Source: a virus. Taken from it: a DNA stretch of 64,000 nt. The stretch lies in UHGV virus genome UHGV-0038496; one strand, given 5' to 3'. Positions 5,719-40,556 of the stretch are shown here, in pieces. Numbering within the stretch: position 1 is the first letter of the stretch; the number at the start of each line of letters is the position of its first letter. The notes below the pieces were generated by a model. The model saw nothing but the letters and a program-made list of their open reading frames with translations. It was not told where the DNA came from and made no database searches. The position numbers and the translations under genes are program-made.

Positions 5719-6219
5719 ATGGCTATAATAGATCGGATGCCGATGCTGCAAAAAGCATTGCTGTACATACTGATTTTCACGCTGTGTAACATTGCGGTTG
5801 GTGTTTGGGGATGGTTGGTTATCCCGATAACGACTTCTTGCTGTGTTGCTGCAAACATGTTTCTGCGTGACAACGTGATCCACCAGTATGGAGCATTCTG
5901 GTCTATAAGCATGGTGGCAATAGCTGGTATGGTTACAGCAGCTGTATCTCCTGTTGCCACACAGGCCGCGATAGGTTGCTTTGTGGCTGTTGTAGCAAGC
6001 TGCGGCGCTGCTAACATACTTTATAGATTCACAGATAACATAGTGGTTGTTAATATCTGCACTGCTGCTGTAGATGCATTGATATTCAGTCCGGTTGCAT
6101 TCCTGGAGATTATGCCAGGTGTTATGGCTATGCAGTTTGGGGTGAAATGCATTGCGGTTGTGCTGGTTGGGGTACTGATTGCTAAACTTGAACGAAGAGA
6201 GGCTCACAACAATGATTAA
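5719..6219 (+). CDS. multi-pass membrane protein
   Basis: Four to five hydrophobic helices. Confidence 0.45.
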   Translation: MAIIDRMPMLQKALLYILIFTLCNIAVGVWGWLVIPITTSCCVAANMFLRDNVIHQYGAFWSISMVAIAGMVTAAVSPVATQAAIGCFVAVVASCGAANILYRFTDNIVVVNICTAAVDALIFSPVAFLEIMPGVMAMQFGVKCIAVVLVGVLIAKLERREAHNND

Positions 6220-9020: not shown

Positions 9021-9571
9021 AATTCGTAACAGCAGATCTACACCTATTGCATAAAAATATCCTGAATTTTGATTCATCGCAAAAACACAGGGGTATGTAC
9101 AAAGGTAATCTGGACTCCATGCACAGGGGAATTATCACTACGTGGAATGATCAAGTGTCTCCTGATGATACTGTGTTCCTTCTGGGGGACATTTGTTGCG
9201 CTAAGGATAAAGATATCGCACACGATCTGCAATACTTTTTGGATATTATGAACGGTCATATTATTCTTGTCCGTGGGAATCATGATACCGAAACCACAGT
9301 GCGGATCATGAAAGAGTTTGGTCATGAAGTGGTTGACTACTACGAATGCCGGGACTTCGAAGATCTGATCTGCATGAGCCACTACCAGTTTGCTACATGG
9401 AATAAGAAACGCTACGGTGCAAGGCAGCTGTACGGGCATGATCATGGTACGGGGACTGAGTGCTACGGCAGGCAGATGGATTGCGGCTGGGATCTGTGGG
9501 GCAGACTGTTAACGCTGGAGGAGGCCTACAACATGACAGGCGCACTTCCGGTATGGAATAAACATTGTTAA
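9017..9571 (+). CDS. calcineurin-like metallophosphatase (Ser/Thr phosphatase-like)
   Basis: DxH (TADLHL), GD (LLGDI), GNHD (VRGNHDT), GHDHG motifs. Confidence 0.65.
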   Translation: MKFVTADLHLLHKNILNFDSSQKHRGMYKGNLDSMHRGIITTWNDQVSPDDTVFLLGDICCAKDKDIAHDLQYFLDIMNGHIILVRGNHDTETTVRIMKEFGHEVVDYYECRDFEDLICMSHYQFATWNKKRYGARQLYGHDHGTGTECYGRQMDCGWDLWGRLLTLEEAYNMTGALPVWNKHC

Positions 9572-9580
9572 GGAGAACAA

Positions 9581-25089: not shown

Positions 25090-25608
25090 ATGACCTGTGC
25101 TCGCAAGCCAGATAGTGAACGTAAACCCTATGATGAGTATGTCACCCCACAATATTTAGCGGATGCACTGTTTGAACTGATTGACTTCCCTGACCACTTC
25201 ACATTCATGGAGCCATGCAGAAACAGTGCAACAGGGCCGTTCTACAGTAATATGCCGTTAGGTTCAGCCTGGGGTGAGATTCAGGAAGGTGTAGACTACC
25301 TTGAAACAGATTATCCACATGTTAACTGCATTGTGACCAACCCGCCATTCTCTAAAGCCAAAGAGTTTATTGAGAAAGGCATGGACGATGCTGATGTGGT
25401 GATCATGTTACTCCGTCTTAACTTCCTTGAGTCAAAGACACGTTATGAGTGGTGGCAAACTCACCAACCCACAACGATAATCACCATTGCCAAGCGTCCA
25501 TCCTTCCAGGAGAACGGCAGAACCGATGGTCAGGCCTATGCCTTCTTTGTGTGGGATAAACAGGACCTGCTGAAACTTCCACCATTTATGTGGATAGGGC
25601 CAGAATAA
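25090..25608 (+). CDS. putative DNA N6-adenine methyltransferase-like protein
   Basis: IVTNPPFS (motif IV NPPF) and FMEPCRNSATGPF (motif I-like); unusually short at 172 aa. Confidence 0.45.
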   Translation: MTCARKPDSERKPYDEYVTPQYLADALFELIDFPDHFTFMEPCRNSATGPFYSNMPLGSAWGEIQEGVDYLETDYPHVNCIVTNPPFSKAKEFIEKGMDDADVVIMLLRLNFLESKTRYEWWQTHQPTTIITIAKRPSFQENGRTDGQAYAFFVWDKQDLLKLPPFMWIGPE

Positions 25609-36373: not shown

Positions 36374-36883
36374 CACGTAACTCCTCTGCCCACACATCCA
36401 CAACAATCGCAAGCTCTGTTGCCTGAAGAGTCAGACAAACTTCAGCGATAAGTGCTTTAGCAAGTAGCTTTTAGCTAATTGTGCTGTTCACACATGCCTA
36501 CCAATTCTGGTAGGTATCTTCCGTATTGCAATTCCTTTCATCTCCTGCTATAATTTAGATCTTCTCTCTCTTTTCCAGAATACGCTTCTGGGTTTCTCTC
36601 TCTTCGGATTGAAGGAGATAGGGGAATATCGACTGAGTGAACAGTGTGAACATCCGAACGAATGGAGTATCGCACGAGCTTGTCGAGGTTGGAGAGCGGG
36701 AGCGGTTATAGCGACCAGCCAACTGCGATGTAATATAGGCAGTAAGGCACAATAACGGTAGAGTTTAAGTACCAGCGTTGTTGGGGAGACTAGAACCGGG
36801 GGTAGGGGGTTAGGCACATATAGATACTTAGCCTGCTAATTATTGCATAACTAAGTGATTATAATGGCTTCCTTGCCTGAAAA

Positions 36884-37594
36884 CTACATTCCATAATCCT
36901 CATCCTGCTTCTGAGCCATTCCATGATAAACTTCCCAGTACTTAGAGGCATACACCATATCCCATTCTTCCTGAGTCACCCATGCAATCATCCCACTGAG
37001 AATGTCTCTCACCTGTTCCCATTCTTCCCTTTGAGCAATAGCCTCTTCCTGTGTTTTGAATGCTTTCGCTATACGTTTTGTAACGGTATGACGAGTGACA
37101 GCAATACTTGCCCTCCAGTAAGTGTACGGGCCATTATGATATTCACTTACCCCACAAATACCAGACTTGTTAGTTTTGTGCATACCACTGTTAGTCATGT
37201 TCTGTAGGCGACTAACCAGTCTGAGATTGTCCAGGTGGTTGTTACCAGGGTCACGATCAATATGGTCAATCTCCATACCTTCCGGGATTGGACCATGATG
37301 CATCACCCAGATAATCCTTGCACCCTGGAGCAGAGTCTGTTTCCCGTCCACCAGCCAGCCTACAACATAGCGACCATCTTTAGCTGCATAGCTACCAGCA
37401 ACAGCCCCCTTCTTCGCATTAGAAGAACGAGTAAATTTATTCCTCAACACACCAAACTCAGCATCATAAACGAAATAGATGCTCCAGTCTGTAGTGTTAT
37501 ACACCTCCTCAAATTTCACCACAACTGTTTTGTTGTGATTGTTCTTCACAGCGTTATCATAATACGCCTGGGCATCAGCCTTGAACTCAAACAT
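36884..37594 (-). CDS. HNH homing endonuclease with AP2-like domain
   Basis: IDHIDRDPGNNHLDNLRLVSRLQN HNH motif; GICGVSEYHNGPYTYWRA AP2-like. Confidence 0.7.
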   Translation of the reverse strand: MFEFKADAQAYYDNAVKNNHNKTVVVKFEEVYNTTDWSIYFVYDAEFGVLRNKFTRSSNAKKGAVAGSYAAKDGRYVVGWLVDGKQTLLQGARIIWVMHHGPIPEGMEIDHIDRDPGNNHLDNLRLVSRLQNMTNSGMHKTNKSGICGVSEYHNGPYTYWRASIAVTRHTVTKRIAKAFKTQEEAIAQREEWEQVRDILSGMIAWVTQEEWDMVYASKYWEVYHGMAQKQDEDYGM

Positions 37595-38357
37595 CCTGAC
37601 CTCCGAAACCTTTTACCAGTATCGAAAATATACCACAAATGGCCTGAAGAGTCAAATCATTTCCCCTCTTTAAGCCTCTTTGATCCGATTAACATGCTAA
37701 TTATTCACAGAAAATACCCACACATAGCCTAAGCACTTGATTTCATTGTGAAATATGGCCTGAAGAGCACCACATATTTTAACATACCTTTAACATAATA
37801 CTTCCCCCGTATATACCTCCCCGCCCTGTCCAGGAGTCCCGTAAATACTGGCTTCCCCACAAATATCAGCACCACAAATATCACAGGCCTGAAGAGGGCC
37901 TCATTTTTTTTTATTCGCACCTCCCCCTCCCCCGTAGGGCGGTACATAGCCTGAAGAGGCATTCATACAATCAGGGGCAAATATCCCAGACTTACATTTG
38001 AGGTATTAGGCAGGCGAAACGCGACTCCTTCTCATAATGCGAATGATTCTCAAATATCACGGCTGCTTTCGTTATTGATAGCCTGGGCCTTGCAGCTATT
38101 GGCCTGGTTATTGCACGGTAGTTACTCACAGCGATTAATAGTTACACACAGAGATTATAGGGTTGACTGTTCACGCCCTCATTGTGTGGGGTTGAATAAT
38201 AACATGCGTTACAGTTTTCCACAGGAGCATTTAAGTTGATGATAAGCCTTCTCATTTGGGAATAATTATTACTTCGTATTGTTCATCATACGTAACACCA
38301 GTTATACGCACTTATGATCATCTGTACAGTAGTTCCACACAAAGGTAGGACACTGGG

Positions 38358-38397
38358 TTATCCACAGGTGGCAGGGTTATCCACAGACTTATCCACA
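38358..38397 (+). promoter_or_regulatory. cluster of three perfect DnaA boxes (TTATCCACA)
   Basis: TTATCCACA at 38358-38366, 38377-38385 and 38389-38397, same orientation. Confidence 0.6.
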
Positions 38398-39410
38398 GCT
38401 CACGTATGACGCTACGCGGAATAATCACAGGTCAAACGACAGGAAACGAAAGGAAACGAAAACAATCGAAAGAAGATTAATTGCGGTTTATTACAGCACG
38501 AAAAGATTAATCATTGCAATAGTTAGCCTGCTATTAATTATATTTACAGGGGTGACAGTTACGTCATGTTACAGATGACTGGGCATCATATTGCACTGGC
38601 ACACTACCATACCAGCTATATAACATGCCCCACAGATGCATCTTATAACTGGTCTGACCACTTACGCATAAAAAATCGTTGACAAAAAGAGCGAAATTTG
38701 TTAGGCATACTTTCCCCATACTTCGGTCATACTCCCCCCACAGTTTACAGTTTGAAAAGCCCATAATCACACCTCAGGCCTCTGGCCTTCGAGGTAACGC
38801 AGTTACGAGACACGCATTGAAATCATAACATCCCATGACTGTTTACACAGCGTAGCACTGAGGCCCCGCCGATTTTACACATCTGACAGTTTACACGCAT
38901 GACAGTTTACGCCTTGATTTACAAGGAAATAGTTGCGACATGTAACTACCGCAAGACGGTATAGTTGCGCCGTGTTATCGTTGCATGTGTAACTTTACCG
39001 TGAAGCCATAGGCTGAATGTGTAACATTACTTCAGCGTTATTGTCACAGATCTGATAGTTTGCACTCTACTCTTAACCAGTGTTATAGTAACACCTGTTA
39101 CTACTACTTTTGACATAATAACGCTGGGAAAACGTAACCGTTTTTGATTATTAACATGTAATAACCCAGCGTTACCATAACAATTTTTATTGTTATTGGA
39201 GGACATAATAACGCTGAGGATTATTACATGATAATTTATGATATAATTTCGCTGGCTATGCCAGGTGGACTACGTCCACCCCGTAGGGCGTTATCATAAA
39301 TTAGCGAGATAATAATGCTGGATAATAACACGGGGGTGTTATTGTCACTCAGCGTTATTATGTCGCTCCCTCCGGTCGCGCCATGTTATCGTTGCATAAT
39401 GTGATTATTG

Positions 39411-39545
39411 CATTCGCAAATTATTATTTATCTTATTTTACTTTATGCAATTTATATATTTTCATTGATTGTAATTTTATTTATTTTATATTTTATTGTA
39501 TCTCATAATCTAATTATATTACTAATATTATACTATATAGATTAT
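39411..39545. other. AT-rich tract (candidate DNA unwinding element)
   Basis: About 130 bp of very high A+T with short ATTTTAT-type repeats. Confidence 0.45.
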
Positions 39546-40092
39546 TGAGATACAGAATAATCACCGCCTGAAAGTATATTAATCCCACAGCAGAATAGTC
39601 ACTGCATGAAATAATGTGGGGTGGGATAGTCACACCTCGGCATGACTGCCTTGCGGAATAATCACCATATTTACCACACCTGCCAGGTTGTTGAGAATAT
39701 TTCTCATATGTTAGCTATGCACTAATATTGCATAATTAAAACATACCTATCAGATGCATCTTATCGTGACGCTACGTGAAAAATAGAATTTTGCGCCTAT
39801 AGTTATACCCGATTTTTCAAAAAATGGACTTTATAACTCACTGTTTTATAAAGATTTATAGTTGTTGACACAGCCATATAAAATGTGCATCAGCCGAAAA
39901 GTGTGAGATACTTCACAAAATGCCCTACATTTGACAGCCGAAAACTGAAAAAACTTAAAAACTATGTATGCAAATACAGCTATTTTACTGTGTGGTTAAT
40001 TTTTAGGCATTTTATTTTATGCATTGTTTGAATACCGGATTCACAGCTTGCCCATGAAGCTACGCTGAATAAATCACTATATTACAGACAAC

Positions 40093-40115
40093 AAAAAGGC
40101 CGCTTATTTGCGGCC
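40093..40115 (-). terminator. rho-independent terminator (minus strand)
   Basis: GGCCGC-ttattt-GCGGCC hairpin with T-run on minus strand; directly after stop of 40137-40556. Confidence 0.6.
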
Positions 40116-40136
40116 CCTTATTATTTCGTTGATAAA

Positions 40137-40556
40137 TTATAGCGCTTCGTATATTTCATAGATTCGATTTGCAAGGTCGTTACGGTAGCGGAATTTTTCG
40201 TCACGCTTGATCATTAAATCTTTATAGCCATACTCCTTAAGCACTTCATTAACTTTATGGCGGCATACCTGCATATTGTCCTGAGCGTCACCAATAAACT
40301 TGTTGCTGTGGTGCATTGCTTTAATTTCTTCTTCCAGGACCAGGGCAACTACCCGGACCGGATCAAGCTGGTAGGCGTTAACATCCATGCGGCACTGTAG
40401 GCGGCTTTTAACATCGTTTACCGGATATACTGCAACCTCTTCCCCGTCCACGTTGACAATAACCAGCTTGTCGCCGATCTCGAATCCTTTAGCCGCTGGA
40501 CCGTGGCAAAAAGCGTTATCAAAACTATATGCGGGATTGTTTGATTCAATGTTCAT
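40137..40556 (-). CDS. hypothetical protein
   Basis: First ORF of the minus-strand array; terminator downstream. Confidence 0.45.
   Translation of the reverse strand: MNIESNNPAYSFDNAFCHGPAAKGFEIGDKLVIVNVDGEEVAVYPVNDVKSRLQCRMDVNAYQLDPVRVVALVLEEEIKAMHHSNKFIGDAQDNMQVCRHKVNEVLKEYGYKDLMIKRDEKFRYRNDLANRIYEIYEAL

Follow-up and report, generated by a model that had tools for sequence, protein, structure and literature searches.

An Array of DnaA Boxes in a Predicted Terminal Repeat of an rV5-like Phage and Its Possible Role at the Genome Ends

A Cluster of Perfect DnaA Boxes in an rV5-like Phage

Why should a virulent coliphage carry, head-to-tail in a non-coding part of its genome, three perfect copies of the 9-mer recognised by the bacterial protein DnaA? 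The question is raised by positions 38358-38397 of a 64,000-nucleotide stretch of UHGV virus genome UHGV-0038496 (hereafter the window, meaning the whole stretch that was analysed), the source of which is an rV5-like (Vequintavirinae) myovirus whose flanking genes show 73-90% nucleotide identity to Vequintavirus phages. The comparisons presented here suggest that these boxes form a docking site for host DnaA maintained by selection, that they most likely lie in the middle of a direct terminal repeat, and that a function at the genome ends can tentatively be proposed for them. Literature searches returned no report of DnaA boxes in rV5-like phages.

The 9-mer TTATCCACA occurs exactly at 38358-38366 (box 1, in the context GGTTATCCACAGG), 38377-38385 (box 2, GGTTATCCACAGA) and 38389-38397 (box 3, CTTATCCACAGC), every copy on the + strand. 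Start-to-start distances of 19 and 12 bp leave gaps of 10 nt between boxes 1 and 2 and of 3 nt between boxes 2 and 3, and the distance from the first to the third box, 31 bp, corresponds to about three helical turns. All three boxes are followed by G, which extends the match to TTATCCACAG, and boxes 1 and 2 extend to GGTTATCCACAG; comparison with the Escherichia coli oriC sequence showed that the 11-mer GTTATCCACAG of boxes 1 and 2 is identical to that of R1 (on the opposite strand) and R4. High-affinity R-type boxes are 9-mers matching TTATNCACA, ideally TTATCCACA, and all three boxes are of this kind. The original prediction, made from the sequence of the window, was that three exact consensus boxes in the same orientation lie within 40 bp and that such a cluster is unlikely to arise by chance. 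Exact matching bears out the first statement, and the counts agree with the second, as the 64 kb contain four exact copies of TTATCCACA against 0.78 expected, none of 100 shuffles gave four, and the chance of a same-strand triplet within 40 bp is about 1e-8 by our own arithmetic from the window-wide rate.

The relaxed consensus TTWTNCACA has ten matches in the window, a total not above chance; six of the ten, all on the + strand, are concentrated in 37701-38881. Among these is a fourth, relaxed box (TTTTCCACA, 38215-38223, + strand), 135 bp upstream of the perfect boxes and in the same orientation, and the three perfect boxes and the relaxed one together span 183 bp in a single orientation. 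The remaining exact copy of TTATCCACA, at 25311-25319, stands isolated inside the open reading frame (ORF) 25090-25608 and is probably a chance occurrence. A recent tandem duplication as the source of the cluster was ruled out, both by the spacers, which differ from each other, and by the presence of exact 9-mers in three diverged relatives in which spacers and flanks differ.

Conservation of the Array within the Clade

The GenBank phage collection contained no close relative of the window phage, and near and distant nucleotide searches of that collection found no homologue of the box region itself. Relatives of the same clade came only from IMG/VR, in the form of three contigs: 140627 (L005/L016), 159287 (L009/L017) and 157310 (L015), which are about 76-90% identical to the window across the gene-poor junction that surrounds the boxes. 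All three carry the exact 9-mers at the 19/12 spacing, so that the three boxes are invariant in four of four clade members. In a three-way alignment every column of the boxes is invariant (27/27), against 6/13 in the spacers, 7/40 in the 20-nt flanks and 57% over the whole region. The length of the gap between boxes 1 and 2 is kept in the relatives with differing spacer sequences (GGTGGCAGGG, GGTGCGGGGG and GGAGGAAGAG), and one relative has lost the sequence 3' of box 3, and another has a different sequence in its place. The G that follows each box in the window is lost after boxes 2 and 3 in L017 and after box 1 in L015, which indicates that selection acts on the 9-mer itself. The relaxed box at 38215 (TTTTCCACA in the window) is likewise kept, as TTTTCCACAG, in 4/4 clade members.

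The conservation ends with the clade. At the aligned box position, only degenerate remnants are found in Murica and EdH4 (genus Vequintavirus) and none in KPP-1 (Mydovirus), and inspection of the junctions of KPP-1 and Ab3-TPeters revealed no boxes in either. The original prediction had named lack of conservation in related phages as the outcome that would speak against it; what is found is invariance throughout the clade together with absence from the sister genera. As judged from these alignments, the array is specific to this rV5-like clade and appears to be maintained there by selection.

The Predicted Direct Terminal Repeat

The array lies in a gene-poor junction of 3.7 kb (36400-40137 on the ORF maps), located between two converging blocks of genes, the + strand genes covering 1-36373 and the - strand genes running from 64000 down to 40137. 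The cumulative GC skew has its maximum at this junction, which also holds the predicted termini, and equivalent non-coding regions are present in Murica, rV5 and KPP-1. In the rV5 paper (PMC3606486), the homologous region was drawn as a "non-coding" box and the origin was not located.

Two characterized relatives indicate where the genome ends within this junction. The EdH4 record has a perfect 459-bp repeat at both ends, which maps to Murica L001 3787-4245, and terminal redundancies of 458 bp have been described for EdH4 and HdK5 (Korf 2019, PMC6563267). In our alignment A1, the start of the EdH4 repeat (GGCGGACGGAATGGG...CTTCTCAT...ATTCTCAAATATC) aligns at about 38009 of the window, and its end, TTGACAAAGAGGAGAAAAACTTGTC, aligns to the near-invariant TTGACAAAAAGAGCGAAATTTGTTA, ending at about 38703. 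For KPP-1, the corresponding paper reported a 514-bp direct terminal repeat at 116,316-116,829 from coverage and PhageTerm; this repeat falls inside the equivalent junction and ends in the same TTGACA element. Because both boundary elements of the EdH4 repeat are conserved in the window and the KPP-1 repeat lies in the same junction, a direct terminal repeat of about 695 bp is predicted by homology at 38009-38703, with edges good to about 10 bp. At its predicted right boundary stands a conserved + strand element (38678-38713, GTTGACAAAAAGAGCGAAATTTGTTAGGCATACTTT), invariant in the three-way clade alignment save for position 38694 and nearly so in the fourth member, and its homologues in Murica/EdH4 and KPP-1 include the repeat end point. 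The predicted repeat is about 230 bp longer than that of EdH4, and its extra central part, which is poorly alignable, carries the boxes. The array would most likely lie mid-repeat, inside the direct terminal repeat. The Septuagintavirus paper is silent on termini.

Another short sequence recurs in repeats of this kind. The T5 iss repeat AATGAGAATCATT has nine copies in T5 (9552-9709), and copies with zero and one mismatch lie inside the KPP-1 repeat (L014 5714-5767); in the window, an overlapping palindromic pair with two mismatches each is found at 38036-38054, at the left edge of the predicted repeat. The motif is significant in T5 and in the KPP-1 repeat and only marginal in the window, and was not used as evidence. 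It resembles a Fur box, and these terminal repeats may have it in common as a second site for a host factor.

Similar Arrays in Other Genomes and the Presumed Binding Partner

The G-extended triple with identical spacing was found in seven IMG/VR contigs, six of which have no nucleotide similarity to the window outside the array. Among these triple-bearing contigs, L003, L004 and L006 are relatives of Pelagibacter/Roseobacter podophages, and L002 is a relative of an Acinetobacter myophage. Two others of the seven have larger arrays: L007 (332-433) has seven boxes alternating at 12 and 19 bp, with a 31-bp period, next to a primase-helicase gene, and L008 (213-551) has ten boxes on both strands. 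In a scan of about 100,000 bacterial and archaeal species genomes, the triple with 10- and 3-nt gaps was present in 11 loci, all of them intergenic multi-box clusters in bacteria of several phyla, one beside a terminase-like gene. That the bacterial loci are oriC regions next to dnaA was considered and rejected, as Pfam searches of the neighbouring genes found no DnaA or DnaN at seven of the seven loci tested.

The spacing of tandem same-strand perfect boxes in viral contigs (L037-L156) is also not uniform. Among the pairs listed, the gaps peak at 3 nt (19/111) and 12 nt (23/111), with a minor peak at 24 nt; the peaks at 3 and 12 nt point to helical phasing, as is expected for cooperative protein binding. 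Concerning position, 16 of 30 whole viral contigs, partly redundant with each other, have their array in the outer quarter, against 25% expected (p about 8e-4). Arthrobacter phage Seahorse has four boxes spaced 12 bp apart, three of them perfect and one near-consensus, at most 100 bp from its right end.

No DnaA homologue is encoded in the 64 kb, a tblastn search of the window with E. coli DnaA giving nothing below E = 0.3. Since the same phased architecture occurs in unrelated phages and in bacteria of several phyla, and the window encodes no DnaA of its own, host DnaA seems the only plausible common binding partner of such arrays, and the array of the window, by its sequence, is best described as a selectively maintained docking site for that protein.

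Two further arrays were noted in the course of these comparisons. A bacterial metagenome-assembled genome (L028 3034-3167) has nine boxes, mostly in a run with a 12-bp period, beside a terminase-like gene, and Pseudoalteromonas phage H101 (L036 3003-3170) has box pairs around an AT-rich stretch by ATGTTAAC iterons, an arrangement that is origin-like. An origin module derived from plasmids was rejected as an explanation for the array of the window, since a 42-mer array query against 72,556 plasmids produced only seven weak partial matches.

The Precedent of T5

The same 42-mer matched 307 phage records, mostly T5-like. The DnaA boxes of these phages were first noted in 1987 and have since been described in 25 T5-like phages, where about eight boxes occupy the large untranslated part of the left terminal repeat as four pairs in the same orientation, 3 bp apart and associated with the inverted repeats IRC/IRD (Davison, bioRxiv 10.1101/866236). 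In the same work it was proposed that the boxes act as an injection stop by binding membrane-associated DnaA; the T5 origins map centrally, outside the terminal repeat. In T5 itself, our searches confirmed the pairs 9437/9449 and 9498/9510, which both fall within the terminal repeat and its annotated iss region. Moreover, the pair of the T5-like phage KPP2018 and window positions 38373-38400 agree at 26 of 28 bases, a match that covers the GAC spacer and both flanks.

Possible Functions of the Array

The explanation favoured here, tentatively and without our regarding it as established, is that host DnaA has an architectural or anchoring role at the terminal repeat, rather than opening an origin. 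The three perfect boxes and the relaxed box would form a high-affinity docking array, in which boxes of R1/R4 grade with 10- and 3-nt gaps provide a geometry suited to cooperative binding of three DnaA molecules in one orientation. A mid-repeat position implies an array at both virion ends and at every concatemer junction; if the placement of the repeat is right, the array would stand about 300-390 bp from each end of the virion DNA and once per concatemer junction. DnaA bound there could hold or organise the DNA end at entry, during end-to-end synapsis, or during processing of the concatemer junction. Several points weigh against such a role. The sister genera Vequintavirus (Murica, EdH4) and Mydovirus (KPP-1) share the junction and the repeat and have no boxes, which makes the array accessory and rules out that an essential end function depends on it. 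The placement of the repeat rests on homology to a different genus, and the enrichment of arrays towards contig ends could come from assembly breaks at repeats instead of true genome ends. Similar arrays elsewhere look origin-like, as in H101 with its iterons and AT-rich stretch and in L007 with its primase-helicase gene. In addition, the role of the T5 boxes is itself hypothetical, and two-step DNA injection is not known from rV5-like phages.

Ranked second, and in our view somewhat doubtful, is a DnaA-assisted replication origin, in which DnaA would open the DNA or recruit the helicase at 38436-38545 or, by looping, at 39400-39545. Tandem perfect boxes are typical of origins, and tandem DnaA boxes assist the iteron origins of plasmids P1, F and RK2, to which such an origin could be likened. 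A- and AT-rich DNA lies 3' of TTATCCACA, as R1 of E. coli oriC is placed toward its unwinding element; the junction contains the 60 bp with the lowest duplex stability of the window (39472-39531, z 5.4), next to iteron-like GGAATAATCAC repeats and a conserved palindromic element; the H101 arrays flank an AT-rich stretch beside iterons, the arrays of L007, L003 and L004 are near primase/helicase genes, and the rV5 origin was never located. The local anatomy, however, does not bear out the origin function named in the original prediction. The only adjacent candidate for unwinding, an A-rich and moderately AT-rich + strand segment with GAAACGA repeats (38436-38545), is weak (z 1.2-1.9), and while it adjoins box 3 in L016 and L015, unrelated sequence takes its place in L017; the strong AT-rich element is 1.07 kb away, beyond the predicted terminal repeat. 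No 13-mers or AGATCT occur at the boxes, and no IHF consensus WATCAANNNNTTR within 600 bp. GATC is depleted in 36400-40137 (5 sites in 3.7 kb, against 4.6 per kb window-wide) and forms no cluster. The skew peak is terminus-like and, with all genes facing the junction, forks leaving it would meet all transcription head-on, an argument that is confounded by the fact that phage skew mostly follows transcription. The same junction architecture exists in the sister genera, yet without boxes, and in T5 the origins are central and not in the repeat (Davison). Taken as a whole, the original interpretation of a real, non-random and clade-conserved cluster stands, while it had missed the context of the genome terminus, and the origin function, one of those it had offered, finds no local support.

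The remaining alternatives assign the boxes to transcription, to titration or to another protein. A polar roadblock or insulator, in which a DnaA array stops RNA polymerase from crossing the concatemer junction into antisense or regulates a promoter of the repeat, appears improbable. DnaA-box complexes can block RNA polymerase in an orientation-dependent manner, as is known from work on asnC and dnaA, and the array, with all boxes in one orientation, is flanked by transcription units that converge on it; bidirectional terminators had been expected by the rV5 authors at the homologous junction, where they found none, and in T5 a TTGACA element stands between the boxes at 6121 and 6194. Against this, about 2 kb separate the boxes from the end of the + strand genes and 1.7 kb from that of the - strand genes; terminator-like hairpins occur in the intervening DNA (such hairpins are enriched, 9 against 2.6 expected, none of them located at the boxes), and a single orientation would block one direction only. 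A sigma-70 scan predicted no promoter beside the boxes, its promoter count being not above that of shuffles, and the sister genera manage without boxes. Still less credit is given to a DnaA sink comparable to datA, also suggested by the original prediction, in which amplified boxes (three to four per repeat copy) would soak up DnaA and stop host initiation or DnaA-regulated genes. Perfect boxes of R1/R4 grade bind DnaA in both nucleotide states, and the genome copy number would multiply them. However, titration needs no fixed spacing, orientation or position, and all three are conserved here and recurrent across phages; three to six boxes per genome are a small number for a sink, the hallmarks of datA are absent (no IHF site between the boxes, and boxes packed within 40 bp instead of about five dispersed ones), and the gain for a fast virulent phage is unclear. 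Titration and transcriptional control are possible functions without specific support. The least probable alternative is that the 9-mers belong to a YCACAG repeat family of the phage, bound by the terminase small subunit or an end-binding protein, and that the match to DnaA is coincidental. CACAG is indeed abundant in 37600-39100, where all 13 occurrences are on the + strand (a density of 8.7 per kb, compared with 1.4 for the window as a whole), and the junction is rich in other short repeat families. DnaA is favoured over such a protein because only the CACAG copies that fit the DnaA consensus are conserved in the clade, for which reason the motif was rejected as the principal explanation, and because the junctions of Murica and KPP-1 show no CACAG enrichment; conservation, moreover, ends at the edges of the 9-mers, and unrelated phages and bacteria with no phage protein in common show exactly this phased architecture. 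In the Murica equivalent of 37600-39100, CCACACA-type motifs are enriched on one strand instead.

Returning to the proposed role of DnaA at the terminal repeat, a wider extension of it can be formulated, although we consider it unlikely: phased arrays of perfect boxes in terminal repeats or near genome ends might be a widespread and unrecognised phage cis-element, with DnaA, a host initiator conserved universally, employed for end handling and not for replication. The module would then have been acquired several times or passed between phages, in view of the 26/28 identity with T5-like pairs. At the same low level of confidence, the class might comprise T5-like siphoviruses, the rV5-like clade, the Arthrobacter phage and the contigs related to marine podophages and to an Acinetobacter myophage, and, no less speculatively, end handling might consist in tethering incoming DNA to membrane-associated DnaA, in joining repeat copies into a circle or concatemer, or in marking the junction for the terminase. 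The function of host DnaA at the ends of phage genomes is a question raised by the T5 boxes since 1987. The present array, which closely resembles that of T5 but belongs to another, unrelated family of virulent coliphages and to a much smaller, gene-free predicted repeat, could offer a simpler system in which to address it, with only three or four boxes to mutate and box-free sister genera as natural controls. The array also points to the location of the terminus in the rV5-like clade, and the gap counts suggest that DnaA boxes in phage genomes are preferably phased at 3 and 12 nt. An end-handling role, if true, would represent a new host-factor dependency, and possibly a vulnerability, of phages used in E. 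coli biocontrol.

Other Features of the Junction

Dozens of short direct and inverted repeat families crowd the junction, and tRNA and Rfam scans of the window gave no match. The only ORF of the junction with a family match encodes an HNH_3 homing endonuclease (36884-37594, - strand, 236 amino acids, Pfam E = 1e-18); the gene is present in L005 and mostly deleted in L015, and looks like a mobile insertion. Further to the left, 36526-36660 is a non-coding block about 75% conserved with Murica L001 2961-3083, containing a strong promoter-like site (TTGCAA, a 17-nt spacer, TATAAT and an upstream TG) followed by a hairpin and T-run at 36574-36592, and may correspond to a small RNA or leader. The decamer GCCTGAAGAG has at least five copies to the left of the predicted terminal repeat (36422, 37642, 37758, 37887 and 37949) and also occurs in Murica (L001 3590-3720), often beside C-rich CCCCCTCCCCCG motifs; in L003, L004 and L006, contigs unrelated to the window, the C-rich motif likewise lies upstream of the array.

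To the right of the predicted repeat, the region 39202-39398 includes a 74-nt block (39309-39382) that is invariant across three clade members, associated with a perfect 17-nt inverted repeat (GACATAATAACGCTGAG at 39202-39218 and CTCAGCGTTATTATGTC at 39348-39364) and with internal hairpins. Elements of similar structure exist in Murica and KPP-1; the element of the window could serve as a packaging signal, as an origin or as a structured-RNA element. The adjoining stretch 39400-39545, with 82-90% AT and z up to 5.4, is the least stable DNA of the whole window and is conserved in the relatives; GGAATAATCAC-type repeats lie to its right at 39552, 39590 and 39653, and box 3 is closely followed by a fourth copy, at 38416. 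The AT-rich stretch also contains the end of contig 140627 (window equivalent 39518), and contig 157310 ends about 100 bp to the left of it. In the latter (L015), a hairpin element homologous to 39246-39293 is duplicated at 11484-11531 and 13917-13966, flanking the box segment, and the contig terminates in a tandem copy of that element, which indicates a rearrangement or an assembly artefact at the repeat.

Comparison with Known Systems

DnaA-box clusters outside origins are known from bacterial chromosomes, such as datA, DARS and those of Bacillus, and the triple with 10- and 3-nt gaps likewise occurs in intergenic clusters, in 11 bacterial genomes. The datA locus needs an IHF site and a wider spacing of boxes, and the DARS core has oppositely oriented boxes; both patterns are absent in the window. 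The iteron origins P1 oriR, F oriS and RK2 oriV combine, as the junction does, tandem consensus boxes, short repeats and an AT-rich block in a non-coding region. Unlike these origins, the window has no identified Rep initiator; about 1 kb lies between its boxes and the AT-rich block, and GATC sites are depleted. With E. coli oriC the array shares the GTTATCCACAG 11-mer and an R1-like orientation toward A-rich DNA. However, oriC possesses 13-mers, low-affinity arrays with 2-bp spacing, a GATC cluster and IHF/Fis sites, none of which accompany the array of the window, and R1 and R4 stand at opposite ends of an origin of roughly 250 bp, whereas the three strong boxes of the window are within 40 bp.

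Among phages, the terminal repeats of EdH4/HdK5 (458 bp) and KPP-1 (514 bp) have the same converging junction and the same conserved left and right boundary elements as the window, but those of EdH4 and KPP-1 are without consensus DnaA boxes, unlike the predicted repeat described here. The T5-like phages differ from the window phage in several respects. They have about eight boxes in a 10-kb repeat with pre-early genes, in comparison with three perfect boxes and a relaxed one in a predicted gene-free repeat of about 0.7 kb; their boxes are tied to IRC/IRD, whereas those of the window are on one strand only and have no inverted-repeat partner with a second set; and their DNA is injected in two steps using A1 and A2, whereas the window belongs to a myovirus of another family in which the boxes occur in one subfamily clade only. 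On the other hand, both are virulent coliphages, both place their boxes in an untranslated stretch rich in repeats and palindromes, within a terminal repeat that in the window is predicted, and both have perfect or near-perfect TTATCCACA in same-orientation pairs separated by exactly 3 bp, the pair of the window being boxes 2 and 3. By this analogy, we read the array of the window as the equivalent, in rV5-like phages, of the box pairs of the T5 terminal repeat.

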